This document shows, one piece after another, positions 3,089-20,121 of a stretch of DNA of 64,000 bases. Made by a program: the position numbers and the translations under genes. Below the pieces are notes generated by a model that worked only from the letters and a program-made list of their open reading frames with translations, had not been told where the DNA came from and ran no database searches. Every line of letters starts with the position of its first letter. The first letter of the stretch is position 1. The DNA comes from an uncultured Eubacteriales bacterium (GTDB taxonomy: Bacteria; Actinomycetota; Coriobacteriia; Anaerosomatales; JAAXUF01), in the NCBI GenBank assembly GCA_964521195.1, contig CAZFRE010000001.1, positions 575 to 64,574 of the forward strand. The letters are read 5' to 3'.

Positions 3089-3279
3089 CCGGGTAGCGGC
3101 CTCGGCTTCCGCCTGGCAAGGGTCCACGTCACGCCGGCCGTCCGCGGCTCGCGAAAATCTGTGTCGAAACTCACATTCATCGCCCCCAAGGGGTTCAGTT
3201 GAGCGCGCCATCGACCGATACGTTCTGTGACAGATGAACAGTTTTGTGCGGGACCGATAGGGCTTTCTGAAGCCCGATC

Positions 3280-3355
3280 CCGACAAAGGCGAACCCGTCG
3301 CGAGGCGGGGGCGCAAAGCCAAGGGTCTCCCCGAGACAGCCTAGCTACCGAAGGT
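3280..3355 (+). ncRNA. c-di-GMP-I (GEMM) riboswitch
   Basis: GGCGAACC, then P2 CCCGTC-GCGA-GGCGGG (GNRA loop), GCGCAAAGCC, P3 GGTCTC/GAGACAGC and CTACCGAAG. The G20/A47/C92 equivalents are at 3288/3315/3348. Confidence 0.85.
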
Positions 3356-3362
3356 GAAGGTA

Positions 3363-4697
3363 ATGAAGAAGCTCGTCGCAGTCCTCGTTCTCGTTCTCGC
3401 TCTGGCCGCAGCGGCCGCAACCCCCGCATTCGCATCCGTCCGAGTCACGGCGCGCGCCAAGACCCAGTTCGCCCAGGGGACTCCTTCCAAGGTCGTCTTC
3501 ACCGCCAAGCTCACCAAGCGCGGCCACGTCAAGCGCGGCATCGTCCGCTTCAGGATCTACCGCAACGGCGAGTTCGTCCGCTCGATCCGGGCCAAGCGGT
3601 CCGGCAAGTCCTACAAGGCCTCGTGGACCCTCACCGACGACGCCCGAACGCTGGCCAGCACCAGCTCCTACCGCTACAAGGTCCGCGCGACCACCAAGCG
3701 CTCCGGCCGCGGTAAGGCATCGGGTCGCGTCACGATTCCGACCCCGACGCCCATCGTGACCCCCTCGGATCCTACGACCGACACGACCGTTCCCACGGTC
3801 ACCCCGGTCCCCGTACCGGTTCCTGCTCCTACCACCACCCCGACGGCGACTCCGGGCCGCTGGGTCGGCTACTACATCCCGGGCTGCCCGTCGCATCTCG
3901 AGCCGCTCGATGAGCTGCAGTCCAAGATCGGCGCGAAGGCCGCGGTGCTCAACTTCTTCATCGCCGACTCCGAGAGTTTCCCGGCCGCCCGCGTCGAGAA
4001 CGCGCAGAGCAACGGCTCCATCCCGATGGTCACCCTCGAGTTCCACAAGACCGTCGACCTGCGTGGCGTCGAGTCGATCACCAACGGGGAGTGCGACACC
4101 TACATCCGCCGCTTCGCGCAGGCTGCCAAGGCCAACGGCGGCGAGATCTGGCTGCGCCCGTTCCACGAGATGAACGGCGAGTGGTCCGCGTGGTGTGGCG
4201 TCGTCGGCAACAACTCCGCTGCCAAGACGGTCGCCGCCTGGAAGCACATCCACGATGTGTTCCAGCAGGAGGGCGCCACCAACGTGAAGTTCGTCTGGAA
4301 CGTCAACGGCTTGAGCTGCCCCAACACCTCGGCGAACGCGATCGAGAAGTACTGGCCCGGCGACGCGTACGTCGACTACACGTCGATCGACGGCTACAAC
4401 TTCGGCAACCACGCGTCGTGGTCGAGCTGGGCGTCCCCCGAGTCGATCTTCGGCGACGCGTACCGCCGCATCAACAAGCTCAGCGGCAAGCCGATGTTCA
4501 TCGCCGAGATGGCGTGCACCTCCAACGGCGGCGACAAGGCTGCCTGGATGGCCAACTTCTTCGCCAACGTGAAGACGCAGTTCCCGAAGCTCGTCGGAGT
4601 GGTCTGGTTCAATGCCGACAAGGAAGAGGACTGGCGCGTCGAGGAGACCCCGGCCACACTGGCCGTCATGCAGAATCTCGCCGTGACCGGCTACTAG
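3363..4697 (+). CDS. Secreted GH26 hydrolase with Lys/Arg-rich N-terminal domain and Pro/Thr linker
   Basis: Signal peptide ending AFA, PT-rich linker, RPFHEMNG and FIAEMAC. Confidence 0.88.
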   Translation: MKKLVAVLVLVLALAAAAATPAFASVRVTARAKTQFAQGTPSKVVFTAKLTKRGHVKRGIVRFRIYRNGEFVRSIRAKRSGKSYKASWTLTDDARTLASTSSYRYKVRATTKRSGRGKASGRVTIPTPTPIVTPSDPTTDTTVPTVTPVPVPVPAPTTTPTATPGRWVGYYIPGCPSHLEPLDELQSKIGAKAAVLNFFIADSESFPAARVENAQSNGSIPMVTLEFHKTVDLRGVESITNGECDTYIRRFAQAAKANGGEIWLRPFHEMNGEWSAWCGVVGNNSAAKTVAAWKHIHDVFQQEGATNVKFVWNVNGLSCPNTSANAIEKYWPGDAYVDYTSIDGYNFGNHASWSSWASPESIFGDAYRRINKLSGKPMFIAEMACTSNGGDKAAWMANFFANVKTQFPKLVGVVWFNADKEEDWRVEETPATLAVMQNLAVTGY

Positions 4698-7659: not shown

Positions 7660-8247
7660 ATGGTCCATGACACCGCCGACAAGATCCTCGCCGCCGCCTC
7701 CGAGCTCATCGCCGAGCGCGGCTACGCGGCGACGACGACGCGCGCGATCGCAGAGCGTGCCGGCGTCAACGAGGTGACGCTCTTCCGGCGATTCGACAGC
7801 AAGCTCGGCATCGTCAGGGCGCTCGGCGCCCGGTGGGCGGAGTCGCAGGCCGGCCATGCGGTGGAGCACGTCGCGGACCCCGAGGACACGCGCGCGACGC
7901 TGCTGTCCCTGGCGCGCATGGAGGTCGCGGGCGCGCAGGCGAACGGCGGTGCCGCGATGCGGCTGGCGTTCGAGGCCCGTTCGGTGCCCGAGCTCGCCGA
8001 GCTGATGGGCGATGGCCCGCGGGCGAATATGACGGGGCTCGCCGAGTACCTTGCCGAGCGCCAAGCTGCGGGCGACCTTCGCGCGGACGTCTCCGCGGCG
8101 GCGATGGCCGAGGCGTTCTTCAGCCTCACCTCGAGCCACGTGATGTACCGGATGATGCTCGGTGTCGACGGCCCGGGCTCCGGCGCGGCCTCCGATGTCG
8201 TCGAGGAACTGGTGGAGCTGTTCCTGAGGGGAGCTGAGAAGCGATGA
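7660..8247 (+). CDS. TetR/AcrR family regulator
   Basis: ILAAASELIAERGYAATTTRAIAERAGVNEVTLFRRF HTH; GGAGG RBS. Confidence 0.92.
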   Translation: MVHDTADKILAAASELIAERGYAATTTRAIAERAGVNEVTLFRRFDSKLGIVRALGARWAESQAGHAVEHVADPEDTRATLLSLARMEVAGAQANGGAAMRLAFEARSVPELAELMGDGPRANMTGLAEYLAERQAAGDLRADVSAAAMAEAFFSLTSSHVMYRMMLGVDGPGSGAASDVVEELVELFLRGAEKR

Positions 8248-8750
8248 AGAAGGTCCTTGTGGTCTATGCGACGAAGTCCGGCTGCACGACCGGAATCGCC
8301 GAGCAGATCGGCCGCGCGCTCACTGAGCGGGGAGCCGACGTCGATGTGTTCTCGGTGGCCGAGGCACCCGCACCCGCCGGCTACGACGCGGTGATCGTCG
8401 GCAGCGGTATTCGCATGGGGCAGTGGCTTGAGGCCGCTCGTGACTGGGTGGGCGCCAGCGTGCAGGCGCTGTCAGCGATGCCCGTGGCCTTCTTCACGTG
8501 TTGCCTGACGCTTGCGCAGGAGCCGGCCAAGGCCGGGGAGGTTCGTGCCTACACCGACGCGCTCATCGAGTCCTGCGGGCTGACCCCAATCGACGTGGGT
8601 CTGTTCGCCGGCTGGAACGAGCCAAGGCGATTCGGGCTGCTCGAGCGCACCATCCTCAAGGCGATGAAGGCGCCGGTCGGTGACTTTCGGGACCTTGCCG
8701 CCGTCGCGGCGTGGACCGACGCCGTCGCGCCCGAACTCGGCATGGAATAG
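8244..8750 (+). CDS. Flavodoxin-domain protein (HemG-like)
   Basis: LVVYATKSGCT, YDAVIVGSGIRMG and GDFRD. Confidence 0.8.
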   Translation: MKKVLVVYATKSGCTTGIAEQIGRALTERGADVDVFSVAEAPAPAGYDAVIVGSGIRMGQWLEAARDWVGASVQALSAMPVAFFTCCLTLAQEPAKAGEVRAYTDALIESCGLTPIDVGLFAGWNEPRRFGLLERTILKAMKAPVGDFRDLAAVAAWTDAVAPELGME

Positions 8751-14644: not shown

Positions 14645-15738
14645 GCCGGGGCGCTCCTCTCGGCGTTCGCGCCGTCGGCCCACGCAAGCACCTGGAGCGC
14701 GCGCAGCGTCAGCCACTTGCTCGGCTGGCCCTTGGTCTCGATGTCGGCGTACATCTTGCCGTTGAACGTGTTGCGAAGCTTCCAGCGCATCTGCGCGTCG
14801 GCCGCCGAGCGTACGACGTCGATCGCATCCGCGTACTCGGGCCGAGGAGGCTCGCCGATGCGCGAAAGCGCCCAGAGCGCCTCGAGGATGTCGGAGTTGT
14901 ATGAGAGCGGGTATCCGAACCGCAGCCAGCCGGGCTTCTCCTTGTAGTGAAGCTCGGGGTGCTCGCCAAGGAAACGCTCGCGCATCCCAGGCCGCTCGGA
15001 TGACGGCGCGGACCACACCATATCGAAGAAGTCCTTCGACTCGGCCGGCAGGGAGCGGAACACCTCCTTCTCGCGAAGCTTCGTCACGCACTCGCCGAGA
15101 AGGTCCTCGGCGCCTTCCGGCCACAGTTCGCGCGGTACCTCGGCCAAGAAGAGAAGCTCCTTGGGCGCAAGCATGTGGCAGTAGCCGTTGAGCTGGTAGA
15201 GCGCTCCGTCTCGGCAGTCGAGCACGCCAAGCTCGCCGTAGAGCGTCACCACATGCTGCAGCGCAGCGAGCACTCGTTCGTCGCGCGCCCATCCCATCCG
15301 TGCGAGCGCGCGTCCCACGTTGGAGGTCAGGCAGGGGATCGAGCCTGCCGCCCGGGCGTTGCTCGCGCTCCATGAGCCGTCCGGTAGCTGCCGCGTGAAC
15401 GCGTACTCAGCTGCGGCTTGCACCCGAGGATCGGAGCCGTCGGCCCACAGCTCGCCGAGCAGGTGCACCTGCCACAACGATCCCACGTACTTGCGATAAT
15501 CCTGCGACGGTGCCATCCACGAGCCGTCGTCGTGCTCGCCCGCCAGTATCGCCGCCACCGGCGGATACTCGTTGCGGCGTGCCCACAACGCAGCGGCCGC
15601 ATCGTCGTCCGCTTCGCCGAGCAGTTCGCGGCGGGTCAGCACCGCAACCGCCGGGTTGTCCGGCTCGAGCAGCCAGTCGATCGTCTTCTGGGGAACGTCG
15701 GTCGCTACCGCCGGTCGGGCGCTGCTCTTCGCAGGCAT
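14641..15738 (-). CDS. Prenyltransferase/squalene-cyclase-repeat (alpha/alpha barrel) hypothetical protein
   Basis: HDDGSW and QLPDGSW QW-like repeats, FGYPLSYNSD and KWLTLRAL; GAGGAGG RBS. Confidence 0.65.
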
Positions 15739-15880
15739 GCTGCGGCCTCCTCTCCTCGTCGCCATTCGTACATACCCGCGTCTGTGCCGTCGTCGCGGTG
15801 TCGGAACGTGGCAGCATCGCGTAGCATGTCTGCGAAGCGCAGTTCGCGCCGGCCCACACTCTCAGGAAGGTCGATCAGTC

Positions 15881-16504
15881 ATGGAGCGCACGACCACACG
15901 ACGGCCCCACCTGCCCCTCGCAGCCATCGCACTCGCGGTGGTCCTTGCCGCCACGGTCGTCGGCTGCGGCAATCAGGTCGCCGAGAACGCTGCCACGGGG
16001 ACCGTCGACCTGGTCGGCAAGTCCGCGCTCGAGAGCCTGCCGGCAGCCACCTCGGCACTCGCGACGATGGCACCCGACGCCAAGCTGCTGTTCATTCAGA
16101 GCGGCAACTCCAAGGAGCCGACGCAGGCACCGGTGTGGGGCTTCCTGTTCGGCTCGCCCTCCTCGGACAAGACCTACATCGTCTACGTCAGGGACGGGAA
16201 GGCGATGCGTCCGTCCGAGTACGGGCAGGCCGGACTCGCGAAGGGCGAATGGCCGAAGGTCGCGTCGGCCGATGCGATCAAGATCGACAGCAAGGCCGCA
16301 CTCGATTCGGCGCGCTCGAAGGCCGGGGCCACCGACAAGGACGCCTACTCGATCGCGCTCGTCGTGCACGTGCCGGCCGCGGAGACGACCACCACGACCA
16401 AGCCGATGGTGTGGTACGTCTCGTTCGACCCCGCGAGCGGTGCGGCTTCCGGCACGGTGGAGGTCGACGCGAGGACCGGCGACGTGACGACCATGGACCA
16501 GTAG
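15881..16504 (+). CDS. Lipoprotein of unknown function with PepSY-like C-terminus
   Basis: VVGC lipobox; IDSKAALDSA and VEVDARTGDV. Confidence 0.7.
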   Translation: MERTTTRRPHLPLAAIALAVVLAATVVGCGNQVAENAATGTVDLVGKSALESLPAATSALATMAPDAKLLFIQSGNSKEPTQAPVWGFLFGSPSSDKTYIVYVRDGKAMRPSEYGQAGLAKGEWPKVASADAIKIDSKAALDSARSKAGATDKDAYSIALVVHVPAAETTTTTKPMVWYVSFDPASGAASGTVEVDARTGDVTTMDQ

Positions 16505-16510
16505 CGGGGC

Positions 16511-16540
16511 TTGCCTAGCCAATACCCGTGGGGGTATGGT
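16511..16540 (+). promoter_or_regulatory. Sigma70-type promoter containing a CsoR/CstR-type operator
   Basis: TTGCCT-N18-TATGGT with the palindrome ATACCC-GTGG-GGGTAT (16522-16537) overlapping the spacer and -10. Confidence 0.7.
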
Positions 16541-16592
16541 GGGTGGCGACCCCGGGCAACGTCCGGGCAGCCGAATGCAGAGGAGCCGACCG

Positions 16593-17009
16593 ATGATCTC
16601 CATCGCCATCCGCGTGGTCGACGTCGACGACTGCAGTTGAAGCGGCGACGGGGATCCGTACTCGGGCGGTCTGTCCGAGTGGATGGCGCTAGAAGCACAG
16701 GTGCTGGGCACCGGCGATGCGTTCGCTGAGCTCTCGGCGTGCGGGATGCCGGTCGAGCGCCAGGCCGAGCTCCTCGAGGCGGCGCTGCGGGAGCGAGGCA
16801 TCGCGGGCATCGCGGTCGACGCGCCCGATCTCTACGACCTTGAAGGTGACGAGCGCGATGCCGCACTGGATGCCATCGTCGAGGGCAGGCCGTCGCCGTA
16901 CGTTCTGGTCGGCGGTCGGTTGGTCTCCTCCGGCGCTATCGAGATGGATTCCGTGTTCGACGCGGTCTCGGCGTGCGCAGGCCACCACTGCGGCGGGCAC
17001 GGGGAGTAG
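16593..17009 (+). CDS. Candidate selenoprotein (138 aa, C-S-U motif, thioredoxin-like/YuzD-like fold, His/Cys tail)
   Basis: AGGAG RBS before ATG 16593; MISIAIRVVDVDDCS-TGA(16638)-SGDGDPYSGGLSEW runs in frame into the 16683 ORF; a SECIS-like hairpin follows. Confidence 0.8.
16654..16684 (+). other. Bacterial SECIS-like hairpin
   Basis: AUCC-[GU bulge]-ACUCGGGC-GGUCU-GUCCGAGU-GGAU; the apical loop begins 28 nt after the UGA. Confidence 0.75.
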
Positions 17010-17011
17010 CG

Positions 17012-17341
17012 GTGGCCGCAGCCTCCGGAACCACCCGCGAGCCCAAGCCCGAGGTCGCCGTGCGCATCCTCGGAAGCCTACGGCCATCACGCGCCGAGAA
17101 GGGCCTGCCGTACGAGTTCTCGGCCTGCGTGCCACATGAGGGCATCTCGGCACGTGCACTCGCCGAGGAACTCGGGTTGCCGATGGATCGCGTCGAGGGC
17201 GCGTTCGTCAATCATGTCGTGCACGGCCTGAGTGTTCGGATCATGCCTGGCGACCGGGTGGCGTTCGTTCCCAACGACACGCCGGGTCCGCATCGCGTGT
17301 TCCTCGGCCTGTACGACGCGGGGAAGGATTCTGGCGAGTAG
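17012..17341 (+). CDS. MoaD/ThiS-like ubiquitin-fold protein lacking the C-terminal GG
   Basis: ARALAEELGLP...VEGAFVNH...PGDRVAFVP followed by the extension NDTPGPHRVFLGLY. Confidence 0.72.
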   Translation: MAAASGTTREPKPEVAVRILGSLRPSRAEKGLPYEFSACVPHEGISARALAEELGLPMDRVEGAFVNHVVHGLSVRIMPGDRVAFVPNDTPGPHRVFLGLYDAGKDSGE

Positions 17342-17374
17342 GTGCACCTGCCTGACCCGGTGGCCGGCAGCCGG

Positions 17375-18013
17375 TTAGGGCTCCGGGTGCCCGAGCAGGA
17401 TGCGGATCGCTGCGTGCGCCTCGTGCGCGGCGGCAACCATTACGCGTGAGGCCATCAAGGGCAGGGCGTCGCGCACGTCGCTCTCCAGATCGCCGACGAG
17501 GTAGAAGCGCTCGCCCACGCGCTCGGTCACGATCTCGTTTGCCGACGAGCACCCCGCGAGCCCGGATGCTGACACGAGGGGCATCTGGGGCAACTCGCGC
17601 ATGAGCGTGTTGGCGATCATCGCCTTTGTGTCCGCGTGGTCGACGGCCTCGATGACGACGTGAGAGTCGCGCACGAGATCCGCGACGTTCTCGGCGGTGG
17701 CCCGGGCGGCAACGCGTTGCAGCTCGACATCCGGTCGAATCCGACGAAGCGTGTGCGCCAGCGCGTCCACCTTGGCCAGCCCGAGCTCGTCTTGGAAGTA
17801 GAGCTGGCGGTTGAGATTGGACTCGTCGACCCGGTCGAAGTCTATGAGGGTGAGACGGCCGACTCCCGCGCGCACGAGCAAGTTCGCCGCGTTACTCCCC
17901 AGGCCCCCACATCCGATGAGCGCGACGTGCGCGATGCCGAGTCGCGCGCGCACCGCGTCGTCGTCATTCGTATCGACGGGCGGCCACTCGAAGTCAGAGT
18001 CGCGAGGCGGCAC
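17375..18013 (-). CDS. thiF: ThiF/MoeB-family sulfur-carrier adenylyltransferase
   Basis: GCGGLGSN, DFDRVDESNLNRQ, EAVD and RVMVAAAHEAH. Confidence 0.88.
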   Translation of the reverse strand: MPPRDSDFEWPPVDTNDDDAVRARLGIAHVALIGCGGLGSNAANLLVRAGVGRLTLIDFDRVDESNLNRQLYFQDELGLAKVDALAHTLRRIRPDVELQRVAARATAENVADLVRDSHVVIEAVDHADTKAMIANTLMRELPQMPLVSASGLAGCSSANEIVTERVGERFYLVGDLESDVRDALPLMASRVMVAAAHEAHAAIRILLGHPEP

Positions 18014-18014
18014 G

Positions 18015-18254
18015 CTAGCCCCCTGCGACCGGCGGGAAGATTGCGAGGCGGTCGCCTTCCGACAGGATCTGCTCGTCGGTGGCGTGACGACCGTTCAGGA
18101 ACACGACGCGCGGTTGGTCCGGCAGCCCCAGCTGGTCGATGACGTCGCCGACCGTGGCGTCCGCGGCCGCCTCGATCGCGCGCGAGTGACGTCCGCCCTG
18201 GCCGTCGGGCTGGTACTGAGAGAGGTATGCGAAGAGCGCGAGATTCACCTTCAT
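18015..18254 (-). CDS. moaD: MoaD/ThiS sulfur carrier protein
   Basis: 79 aa; MKVNLALFAYL, VFLNG and C-terminal LAIFPPVAGG. Confidence 0.9.
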   Translation of the reverse strand: MKVNLALFAYLSQYQPDGQGGRHSRAIEAAADATVGDVIDQLGLPDQPRVVFLNGRHATDEQILSEGDRLAIFPPVAGG

Positions 18255-18336
18255 GCCCGATTCCTAGCGACGATCATGCCGCGCGACGCGCCCGCGACGC
18301 CGCCCGGAGGCGACGGCGCGGGCGCAGGATGCGCGA

Positions 18337-20121
18337 CTACTGCAGGCCCATCTCGGCAGCGGTGCCGGCCACGAAGTCGAACACGGAGTCGAGCTCCTCG
18401 TCGGATACGGTGAACACGACGTCGTGTGGCGGCAGCTTCTCCTCGTAGAAGAACTTCGGCAGCCTGTCGTCGGCTGCGGTGAAGCCCGCCCGTGTGTTGT
18501 ACATGCGCTCCATCGTAAGCGTCTCGCGGCCGAGCTGCATGAGCTCGGCGATATCCCATTTGTCACCCGTGTGCGCCTCGACCATCTCGTGGATGGCGAC
18601 GAGCGCCTCGGGGATGTCGAGAACCGGGAACGCGACGAAGATGCACAGGCCCAGCGAGTCGAGCATCGCTGTCGCGATCTGCAGGTTCTTCGACAGGACG
18701 GCCTGACCCTCGGACTTGAGCGGGTCGACGGTGCCGCCAACCGCGAGGATGTTGGAGGTGATGGTGTAGCCGGCGGTGTGGTCGGCACCCATGGTCGAGG
18801 TCGCATAGGTCACGCCGATGCCCTGGATGGGGCGCGGGTCGTAGGCGGGGAGTGCCTGGTGCTTCACGACCGGGATATTAGCGACGCCGAACTTGATGCC
18901 CGTGGCCTCGGCGCCGTCCCAGAGCACGCGCAGCTCGCTGTTCGGGTCGATGCCGGCCTTGAGTGCCTTGAGCGCGCCCTCGGCGTCACCGAACTCGAGC
19001 GCGCCTGATGCCATGTACACGCCCATCGTCGCGCCCATCTCGATCGTATCGAGCCCGAGGTCGCCGCACGCGCGGTCCAGCTCGGCGATGCCGTCGAGGT
19101 CGCCGATGCCGCAGTCGGCGCCGAATGACCAGGCCGTCTCGTACTCCGGACCCTTCGTCTTGTAGTGGCCGTCCTTGTCGAGCCAGTAGCGCGAGCACTG
19201 GATGACGCAGCCGCTGTGGCAGCCGTGGCTCGCGTTCGAGGGCGAGTCGCCGCGCGCGAGTATGGTCTCACGCTGGGTCTCGCCGCCGATCGCATCGGCG
19301 AACTCGAACGTGCCCGCCGAGAAGTTGCGCGTGGGCAGGCCTCCGGCCTCGTTGAGGATGTTCGTCAGGACGTTGGTCCCATACATCGGGAGCCCTGTGC
19401 CTGAGACCGCGTGCTCCTTCAGGGCCGCCGAGAACCTCTTGGCGGCGGCGTTGAACGCGTCTTTGTCGGCGTGGTCGATGGACTTCGCTCCCGTGTAGGA
19501 GATCACGATGCCCTTGAGCCCCTTGCTGCCCATGACCGCGCCCAGACCGCCTCGGCCGGCGAAGCGGTTCGGATAGCCCTTCGGGTCCGAGACGGCGATG
19601 CCCGACGCTCGGGCGCCGACCTCGCCAGCGGGGCCGATGCTGATCGTGGCGAATCTGTCGCCATCCGGGCGCATCGCGGCAAGCTTGTCGTACACCTCGT
19701 AGTTGCCGAGGCCTGCCCAGTCATCGACGCGCTCGAGCCGCGCGGTGCGATCGGCTTCGATCACGAGCGCATAGCGCGCAGACGCATCGGCGGGGACGCC
19801 TTCGATCACGACCGCCGAGAAGCCGATGCGCGCGAGGGCGTGCGCCGCCTGACCGCCGGAGTTGGACTCCTTGATGCCGCCGGTGAGCGGGCTCTTCGCG
19901 CCTACCGAAAGCCGCCCGCCGTTGGGTGCCGTGGTGCCCCCGAGTGTGCCCGGCGCGAAGACGAGCTTGGCGGCGGGGCCGAGCGGGTCGGCGTCCGCCG
20001 GCACCTCGTGGTAGATGATCGCGTCGGTCAGGGCTCGGCCACCGTACTTGGCCCACCCCTCGCGCACCGGCTCGATGGTGACCGAGAGATCGGTCATGTT
20101 GACGCGGAGTAGCTCCCTCAT
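18337..20121 (-). CDS. aor: Aldehyde:ferredoxin oxidoreductase (tungsten/molybdopterin family)
   Basis: SPLTGGIKESNSGG, GRGGLGAVMGSKGLK, CHSGCVIQC, PEYET, DLGLDT and DSLGLC; GGGAGG RBS. Confidence 0.93.
   Translation of the reverse strand: MRELLRVNMTDLSVTIEPVREGWAKYGGRALTDAIIYHEVPADADPLGPAAKLVFAPGTLGGTTAPNGGRLSVGAKSPLTGGIKESNSGGQAAHALARIGFSAVVIEGVPADASARYALVIEADRTARLERVDDWAGLGNYEVYDKLAAMRPDGDRFATISIGPAGEVGARASGIAVSDPKGYPNRFAGRGGLGAVMGSKGLKGIVISYTGAKSIDHADKDAFNAAAKRFSAALKEHAVSGTGLPMYGTNVLTNILNEAGGLPTRNFSAGTFEFADAIGGETQRETILARGDSPSNASHGCHSGCVIQCSRYWLDKDGHYKTKGPEYETAWSFGADCGIGDLDGIAELDRACGDLGLDTIEMGATMGVYMASGALEFGDAEGALKALKAGIDPNSELRVLWDGAEATGIKFGVANIPVVKHQALPAYDPRPIQGIGVTYATSTMGADHTAGYTITSNILAVGGTVDPLKSEGQAVLSKNLQIATAMLDSLGLCIFVAFPVLDIPEALVAIHEMVEAHTGDKWDIAELMQLGRETLTMERMYNTRAGFTAADDRLPKFFYEEKLPPHDVVFTVSDEELDSVFDFVAGTAAEMGLQ

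Follow-up and report, generated by a model that had tools for sequence, protein, structure and literature searches.

In MoaD/MoeB chemistry, ThiF adenylates the C-terminal glycine of MoaD, and the resulting thiocarboxylate gives the dithiolene sulfurs of the pyranopterin. In the passage that treats this gene neighbourhood, Iyer, Burroughs and Aravind (2006, PMC1779556) describe MoaD genes as "strictly adjacent" to those of aldehyde:ferredoxin oxidoreductase (AOR), often with MoeB, in what is probably a mobile tungsten-cofactor cluster; the archaeal AOR-MoaD association was confirmed by Makarova and Koonin in the corresponding passage of PMC2948915, and in a 2026 classification (PMC13328260) this type is named a Class I WOR, accompanied by thiF and a ThiS-like "WorX". 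Here we describe five genes between 16.5 and 20.2 kb of a 64,000-nucleotide stretch of contig CAZFRE010000001.1, from an uncultured bacterium of the Coriobacteriia (the window, with a guanine-cytosine content of ~68%), where such an aor-moaD-thiF operon converges on a second operon encoding a predicted small selenoprotein, which we call SecP, and a MoaD-like protein without the terminal Gly-Gly, MoaDL. The first-pass annotation of this DNA saw in the five genes a possible undescribed module for selenium-assisted maturation of the AOR. Our preferred reading, to which we give a probability of about 0.6, is that two separable units stand side by side: one (unit A) made up of aor, moaD, thiF and MoaDL, the other (unit B) of SecP. 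What the gene identities, the Sec recoding, the folds and the synteny counts are is shown by the analysis; the roles proposed below for MoaDL and SecP are inferred from them.

The tungsten AOR cluster and MoaDL

All five genes are present in the order and orientation first described, with 33 nt between the stop codons of the convergent SecP-MoaDL and thiF-moaD-aor operons. The product of aor, or worL (18337..20121, reverse strand), matches AFOR_N (PF02730, 5e-55) and AFOR_C (PF01314, 2e-74) as a full-length protein, and its best solved relatives (9mqx, 7.6e-93; 8c0z; 1aor, 2.5e-76) cover residues 13-577; because the alignments with homologues, too, begin at residue 13 of the longest aor open reading frame (ORF), the start was placed at ATG 20121. 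The four cluster cysteines are kept, as the first-pass annotation had it, and lie in GCHSGCVIQC, which is one residue longer than CxxCxxxC, and in DSLGLC; the motifs GPEYE and GADHTAGY can be seen in the protein itself and where it is aligned with 9mqx and 8c0z, and we take them, by our own assignment and not from a direct PfAOR alignment, to correspond to the Glu and His in the active site of PfAOR. It was also right that no ferredoxin subunit gene adjoins aor, which is flanked by moaD and thiF and, upstream and on the opposite strand, by an alpha/beta hydrolase gene. With no adjoining electron-transfer subunit gene, the protein is, judging from its sequence, a tungsten-type, single-subunit member of the Class I WOR family. 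No tup or mod genes were recognised by eye in the ORF list of the window, a reading of the first 70 residues per ORF and not a family scan.

Directly after aor comes moaD, or worX (18015..18254, reverse strand), encoding a 79-aa sulfur carrier that has a ThiS/MoaD domain (Pfam ThiS, PF02597, 1.3e-13) and ends in Gly-Gly (PPVAGG). It is followed by thiF (17375..18013, reverse strand) for an E1-like adenylyltransferase (Pfam ThiF, PF00899, 4.4e-35; NCBIfam NF006395, 232 bits against a cut-off of 159), and this order is kept in related loci. The stretch 17375-20121 agrees with the published cluster as the cited passages present it (AOR/WorL, then a GG-ended carrier, then ThiF, and no electron-transfer subunit), and aor-moaD-thiF is an already described tungsten-cofactor arrangement. 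What differs is MoaDL: the passages describe one ubiquitin-like protein (Ubl) with a reactive tail, and those returned by term searches of PMC1779556, PMC2948915 and PMC13328260 mention no second, tail-capped MoaD paralogue.

MoaDL (17012..17341, forward strand; 109 aa) begins with a GTG, and a putative ribosome-binding sequence GGGGAG lies at 17001-17006, within the 3' end of SecP. The protein ends at 17341 with ...PNDTPGPHRVFLGLYDAGKDSGE and lacks a C-terminal GG; at the GG position stands P-G-P, in which only the first of the two glycines is kept, followed by 17 more residues. This region forms a motif, FVPNDTPGPHRVFLGLYxAGK, that is invariant in 30 homologues, and only the extreme C-terminus beyond it varies. 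The window protein has no Pfam or NCBIfam match at E<=0.01, although one homologue (P0114) has a precomputed PF02597 match and some of the more than 250 relatives are named "MoaD/ThiS family protein [Coriobacteriia]". An AlphaFold2 (AF2) model shows a beta-grasp (mean per-residue confidence, pLDDT, 79.5), and in Foldseek the structures that come closest are those of SAMP1, MoaD and TtuB, at a probability of 1.0 and with TM-scores normalised to target length (TMt) of 0.6-0.7. An hhalign comparison with the neighbouring MoaD sets PGDRVAFVPN on EGDRLAIFPP, after which MoaD stops at VAGG and MoaDL runs 21 residues further. Taken with its AOR synteny, the modelling identifies MoaDL as a MoaD-fold paralogue of the sulfur carriers. 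It shares with MoaD, ThiS, SAMP, TtuB and Urm1 the predicted beta-grasp and two sequence signatures (VEGVFVN for the carriers' V-x-V-N, and PGDRVAFVP for GDxxAxFPP), and differs from them in having no Gly-Gly and continuing with PGPHRVFLGLYxAGK... instead. Loss of the GG makes adenylation or thiocarboxylate formation impossible without processing. We considered a processed pro-carrier and rejected it: the chain lacks an internal GG, and none of the listed neighbouring genes was noticed to encode a JAMM peptidase, although no search aimed at one was made.

The association of MoaDL with this AOR recurs well beyond the window. A MoaDL scan with one genome per species yielded 63 loci, nearly all from metagenome-assembled genomes (MAGs) of Coriobacteriia or other Actinomycetota, and AOR at these loci was identified by tblastn with the window proteins. 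The window's AOR clade lies within 2.4 kb of MoaDL in 31 of the 63, and in 20 of the 37 that have at least 3 kb on both flanks. Three gene orders occur: in 16 loci the two genes run in the same direction and MoaDL precedes aor by 112-258 nt, in 10 they converge as they do in the window, and in five they diverge. From the other side, an AOR-centred metagenome scan found MoaDL adjoining in 10 of 11 informative loci, where the AOR is at least 64% identical; where its identity is 37-44%, neither MoaD nor ThiF nor MoaDL lies beside it. That the adjacency persists through three gene orders, between MoaDL proteins of 43-81% identity, speaks for a functional coupling. Since many MAGs of Coriobacteriia and Actinomycetota have MoaDL linked to aor-moaD-thiF, in one or another of three orientations, at least four of the five genes form a conserved module. 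MoaDL is a genuine, conserved fourth partner of aor-moaD-thiF, and the linkage is non-random and flexible. A second MoaDL paralogue, ~45% identical, is often found upstream of MoaDL-aor on the opposite strand, divergently oriented (L026, L029, L033, L038, L042 and L064); in L042 it comes after a nitroreductase gene.

In unit A, the GG-ended MoaD and ThiF would serve as dedicated sulfur carrier and E1 for the dithiolene of the tungsten-bis-pterin in the AOR. MoaDL, with PGP and a short helix in place of the GG tail, would be a non-reactive MoaD mimic that is not adenylated and carries no sulfur. It may dock where MoaD binds, whether on ThiF, on molybdopterin synthase or on apo-AOR, and channel the cofactor to the AOR in the manner of an adaptor or chaperone; alternatively, it may be a small structural subunit. 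How the tungsten or molybdenum cofactor is routed to a particular apo-enzyme is called an open question in a study of Thermococcus kodakarensis Ubl proteins (PMC11323500). MoaDL has lost its reactive tail and has still stayed with one AOR clade while the gene order changed at least three times, which makes it a concrete candidate, open to testing, for a factor that targets or assembles the cofactor. Two things are new here: that a Class I tungsten AOR has a capped MoaD paralogue for a conserved partner, and the thioredoxin-fold selenoprotein family, so far uncatalogued, to which SecP is assigned below.

SecP as a neighbour of the AOR cluster

SecP is set apart from unit A by its neighbourhoods in other genomes. 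Its presence was scored with a TGA-aware family hidden Markov model on six-frame translations, and SecP-centred contexts were taken from exact-protein look-ups, a metagenome scan with a closer SecP alignment having given none. The AORs of five loci (L007, L008, L037, L043 and L075) are 85-88% identical to that of the window, and SecP is absent from all five within 6-10 kb. It occurs in none of the 25 AOR-centred loci and, the window aside, within 10 kb in one of the 31 AOR-linked MoaDL loci (L042), where it belongs to another operon. Ten loci centred on SecP itself contain AOR once and MoaDL twice: the window has both, L001 contains MoaDL but no AOR and has an SDR gene between MoaDL and SecP, and the other eight (L002, L005, L006, L070, L071, L073, L100 and L102) have neither. 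A SecP that is 65% identical to that of the window (L102/L103) has neither MoaDL nor AOR nearby. The neighbours found at SecP loci are OsmC, an FmdB zinc ribbon, DUF302, YgaP-like/rhodanese, MsrB, a DsbD_TM-cupredoxin protein, CCP_MauG, PadR, a sigma-70 factor and a protein with two transmembrane segments. L075 has GyrI-like and lipoprotein genes in common with the window, and SpeE-like and AzlCD genes at the SecP position, while the upstream genes of L007 and L008 are unrelated to those of the window. The putative lipoprotein gene upstream of SecP (15572-16504, forward strand) has no Pfam or NCBIfam match; its 50%-identical homologue in L075 (11243-11905) holds the same relative position, and a GyrI-like gene lies beside both.

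SecP is on these counts a lineage-specific neighbour and no required part of the AOR module. The proposal that the five genes are one module held for MoaDL with aor, moaD and thiF (31 of 63 and 10 of 11 loci) and failed for SecP (none of 25 AOR-centred and one of 10 SecP-centred loci). In the same way, the annotation's refuting case, a Sec gene pair unlinked to aor in other genomes, is what we find for SecP and not for MoaDL. Selenium-assisted AOR maturation by the five genes is only partly supported, and the selenium-AOR link at its core rests on an adjacency that is not conserved; recognising this may save experimental effort on the selenium-tungsten idea, or turn it to the MoaDL question. 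In the two-unit reading, one sublineage would have taken up SecP at a site just upstream of MoaDL; in the window, the 2-nt gap between the two genes would provide for translational coupling.

The contexts of distant SecP forms lead elsewhere. The SecP forms with two selenocysteine (Sec) codons come last in an operon that reads ArsR-Thioredoxin_3-ArsP permease-Usp-TlpA-like(UxxC)-CcdA-SecP, and both two-Sec SecP genes (L042 and L028) stand directly after a DsbD_TM/CcdA gene. The ORF directly upstream of CcdA in L042 (6483-7018, forward strand) encodes a membrane-anchored thioredoxin/TlpA-like protein with an in-frame TGA of its own (IYLLFHSLS-U-QSCVEIS, a UxxC), which with the two-Sec SecP would make three Sec codons in one operon. 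This ArsR/CcdA-type context points, as far as gene content can tell, to thiol/selenol redox relays or soft-metal handling and not to pterin chemistry. In the OsmC-linked clade, a gene for an FmdB-family zinc ribbon (Zn_ribbon_8) directly follows SecP (L002, 10304-10510; L005, 488-697); FmdB-family proteins are listed among the families with selenoprotein (UxxU) forms in a 2026 review (PMC13188914).

Several observations weigh against dividing the locus in this way, some because they loosen MoaDL from the AOR and others because they tie it to SecP. Half of the MoaDL loci are without AOR inside 10 kb, among them a subgroup in which MoaDL lies between arginine deiminase and amidohydrolase genes (L016, L024, L034, L036 and L041), and the neighbours are different again in Desulfobacterales, where an E1-like protein is next to MoaDL, and in Geobacter-like MAGs, where an OYE-type flavoenzyme is; the AOR-specificity of MoaDL may be doubtful for these reasons. 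Between the stop of SecP and the start of MoaDL there are 2 nt, and the Shine-Dalgarno sequence falls inside SecP; such a spacing suits a stoichiometric pair better than an accidental neighbour. SecP adjoins MoaDL in the window and in L009, is separated from it by one SDR gene in L001 and L012 (L009 and L012 being two loci of one MAG), and lies 2 kb from it in L042, where AOR is also present, and 7 kb from it in L028. SecP is found at four of the 63 MoaDL-centred loci, against ~0.5 expected at one SecP per genome (63 loci of 20 kb), a rough estimate that is uncorrected for relatedness. A crude neighbour-joining tree groups the adjacent cases into a single subclade of MoaDL inside the convergent-AOR clade, and shared ancestry explains part of the recurrence; the SecP and MoaDL copies of L028 and L042 are very divergent. 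SecP and MoaDL may thus be loosely tied in function. In a Desulfobacterales MAG (L065, 148-1420), a MoaDL homologue (...LPYGTPGPYRVFLGM...) is directly followed by a 311-aa E1-like ThiF-family protein, a pair that hints, from gene order and sequence, that MoaDL proteins may partner E1-like enzymes also outside the AOR context.

One alternative, which we consider unlikely, is that SecP and MoaDL form a functional pair of their own, a selenoprotein with a non-conjugatable ubiquitin-like adaptor, for which AOR is one of several clients or neighbours. Such a pair would bear a loose resemblance to the Urm1-peroxiredoxin and Ubl-OsmC associations. It would account for the adjacency without AOR in L001, L012 and L009, with two copies in one MAG, and for the distant SecP forms near MoaDL in L028 and L042, and it fits the position of OsmC beside SecP in L002 and L006; an OsmC-Ubl association in archaea is noted in a passage of PMC2948915. 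However, MoaDL is missing from eight of the 10 SecP-centred loci and SecP from 59 of the 63 MoaDL loci, inherited synteny can explain adjacent cases that all belong to one MoaDL subclade, and a MoaDL without GG rules out conjugation or persulfidation of the Urm1 type.

Two further alternatives extend such a pair to the AOR itself, and we regard both as improbable. In the first, which is the five-gene system of the first-pass annotation, SecP, together with the capped MoaDL, would act through its selenol on the tungsten-pterin site of the AOR, whether in maturation, repair or protection, possibly by handling sulfide or selenide or by keeping the dithiolene or carrier pathway reduced. Tungsten AORs are oxygen-sensitive, and this, the 2-nt gap, the firm linkage of MoaDL to AOR and the SecP-family gene 2 kb from MoaDL-AOR-MoaD-ThiF in L042 speak for it. 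It has to contend with the absence of SecP near the closest AOR clusters (85-88% identical, within 6-10 kb) and from all 25 AOR-centred loci, with the 65%-identical SecP of L102/L103 that has neither partner nearby, with the separate operon of the L042 gene, which ends CcdA-SecP, and with a metal-binding-like tail of SecP that is not conserved. The second is no less of a long shot: in the lineage of the window, SecP and MoaDL might be a selenol-based redox or chalcogen-relay pair servicing the tungsten-pterin AOR, and may, for example, keep the dithiolene/tungsten site or the MoaD-thiocarboxylate pathway reduced, or deliver a chalcogen ligand. It is allowed because of the 2-nt gap, because MoaDL is AOR-linked, and because SecP lies near MoaDL in three separate lineages; were it true, this would be the first selenoprotein dedicated to the maturation or repair of a pterin cofactor.

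A natural analogy for any selenium-AOR connection is the maturation of Se-dependent molybdenum hydroxylases, which involves SelD with YqeB/YqeC-type factors and is, to our knowledge, the only established case of selenium finishing a pterin-metal cofactor. The difference is that these enzymes carry a labile Se ligand, involve no Sec protein and belong to the xanthine-oxidase family, not to the AOR family, and none of the five window proteins matches the NCBIfam families of that maturation system.

SecP as a predicted selenoprotein with a thioredoxin fold

SecP (16593..17009, forward strand) encodes, on read-through of an in-frame UGA at codon 16 (16638..16640), a 138-aa protein with the pattern C14-x-U16 ... 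C50. Its start is ATG 16593, with GAGGAG 7 nt upstream, and its stop TAG 17007-17009; the earlier start at 16511 has to be corrected, that position being the start of a spurious ORF in another frame. The N-terminus reads M-I-S-I-A-I-R-V-V-D-V-D-D-C-S-U-S-G-D-G-D-P-Y-S..., with the motif VVDVDDCS-U-SGDGDPYS. A k-mer-seeded search returned six relatives, every one called as a C-terminal fragment, and a HMMER scan returned 87 clusters among 1.84 billion representatives; almost all of the database entries are short (~80-110 aa), beginning right past the TGA or at the next Met, and none is named. The DNA upstream of these fragments has a TGA at the same column, with both flanks conserved, in at least ten homologues at 46-69% identity. 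The motif is identical in L001 and L012 and reads VVDLDDCS-U-SGGSDPYS in L002, L005 and L006, IVDLEECS-U-SGGSDPYS in L071, VIDLGDCG-U-VADEDPHS in L070, VVDVDECS-U-SGGQDPYS in L100 and VVDVDDCS-U-SDSGDPHS in L102. Full-length Cys forms also exist (P0133, DDCGCGCGGG, with CGC at the site; P0154, ACGC), and their Cys aligns with the UGA. The two-Sec copies of L042 (7747-8103) and L028 (14198-14563) have a second in-frame UGA at the otherwise invariant Cys50, where SAC-GMP becomes GAT-U-ELP and GST-U-AMP.

The UGA is followed by a hairpin resembling a selenocysteine insertion sequence (SECIS) at 16660..16680 (forward strand), ACUCGGGC-GGUCU-GUCCGAGU, whose 8-bp stem begins 22 nt past the U of UGA and whose GGUCU loop, at +31 to +35, is invariant. 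Over nine sequences 94.4% of cells are paired, and at two of the pairs the changes are compensatory (AU/CG/GC/GU); covariation scores 0.243, where shuffles give 0.104 and none in 500 reaches 0.243, and pairing drops to 19-39% in slid controls. Hairpins with GU-containing loops also follow the second UGAs of L042 and L028. An Rfam scan of the window at gathering thresholds gave no SECIS-family match. On the strength of these sequence comparisons SecP is a real selenoprotein gene, its UGA being recoded to selenocysteine. In L001, L012, L009, L070 and L071 TGA serves SecP both as Sec codon and as stop, while the window copy stops with TAG; the L009 copy (8199-8580) lies in three frames in a long-read MAG, from either an assembly error or a pseudogenisation.

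That there is no selenoprotein at all, TGA 16638 being a stop, the real gene a 108-aa ORF from ATG 16683 and the upstream similarity a conserved leader, is scarcely credible: gene callers do take only the downstream ORF in database entries, and in the 64-kb window no tRNA-Sec was found and no Sec machinery gene was recognised by eye (a reading of the first 70 residues per ORF, not a family scan), but this account has to meet in-frame amino-acid conservation on both sides of the TGA in at least ten homologues, a Cys aligned with it in full-length P0133 and P0154, a second TGA in place of an invariant Cys in L042 and L028, a downstream SECIS hairpin with compensatory changes, and a segment before the TGA that would be strand 1 of the fold.

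The fold was modelled with AF2 on the Cys-form homologue P0133 (pLDDT 73 overall, 74-92 in the core). The model runs from strand 1 (residues 4-9, before the UGA) through a ~35-residue loop, helix 1, strand 2, helix 2 and a cis-Pro to strands 3 and 4 and helix 3, with helix 1 beginning right past the invariant Cys50; Pro102 is likewise invariant. The loop that carries the C-x-U/C motif is of low confidence, and the model does not fix the geometry of the C-x-U/Cys50 site. Foldseek against the PDB gave thioredoxin-fold matches only, all of them weak (E>=0.014), the best by TM-score being 1xg8 (S. aureus SA0789, YuzD-like; TMt 0.63, probability 1.0) and ArsD 3mwh (TMt ~0.5, probability 0.91). On this model SecP has a thioredoxin fold. 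A secreted protein was also considered and rejected, since strand 1 begins at residue 3-4 and no signal-peptide-like segment was seen by eye, no predictor having been run.

By sequence the family stands apart. Sixteen members searched against Pfam and NCBIfam at E<=10 matched nothing except DUF1462, at E=0.042 in two members and below the cut-off; among them there was no match to ArsD (PF06953), Thioredoxin_3 (PF13192) or an NCBIfam selenoprotein model, and a PDB sequence search with the SecP profile returned noise only. The 2026 selenoproteome review (PMC13188914) does not have SecP in its table of model-backed families either; the entry "Sec.1, PF13192, CxU" there is another Pfam family. Like the catalogued thioredoxin-like bacterial selenoproteins, SecP is small, thioredoxin-fold as modelled and C-x-U-bearing; it differs from them in failing PF13192 even at E<=10 and in having an extra invariant Cys/Sec at helix 1, and a genuine PF13192 protein is encoded by a separate gene in the same L042 operon as SecP. 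SecP would be a new small thioredoxin-fold family for the prokaryotic selenoproteome, with one or two Sec at positions that define the active site.

The best structural matches to the model, ArsD and YuzD (DUF1462, PF07315, 1xg8), are likewise small, have a thioredoxin fold and lack a canonical CxxC. In ArsD, three soft ligands lie close to strand 1 and helix 1, and Cys-rich C-terminal tails with vicinal Cys occur optionally; SecP has C-x-U with Cys50, and tails in some members (CAGHHCGGHGE in the window, GGCCSGGCC in P0177). On the other hand, there is no significant sequence similarity to ArsD or YuzD, SecP uses Sec, a ~35-residue loop separates C-x-U from the third ligand, and, in difference from ArsD, the window SecP has no ars-operon context. 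The Cys/His-rich tail CAGHHCGGHGE itself (residues 129-138, 16977-17006) is found in the window copy alone, and we reject it as a conserved metal sensor for that reason. SecP would be cytoplasmic, with the C-x-U in the loop past strand 1; the invariant Cys, which is Sec in distant members, would stand at the start of helix 1 and face the cis-Pro. There, U16 could engage with C14 and C50 in selenenylsulfide/thiol exchange, or the three chalcogens could form a soft-ligand site like that of ArsD.

Other observations

A search for sequencing runs with this locus returned activated-sludge DNA metagenomes only, and no RNA runs. The only Rfam match in the window is a c-di-GMP-I-GGC riboswitch aptamer (RF03167) at 3279-3353 on the forward strand, scoring 69.4 bits against a gathering score of 59. 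It lies immediately upstream of a 447-aa ORF (3354-4697) whose N-terminus, read by eye over the first 70 residues, is signal-peptide-like.

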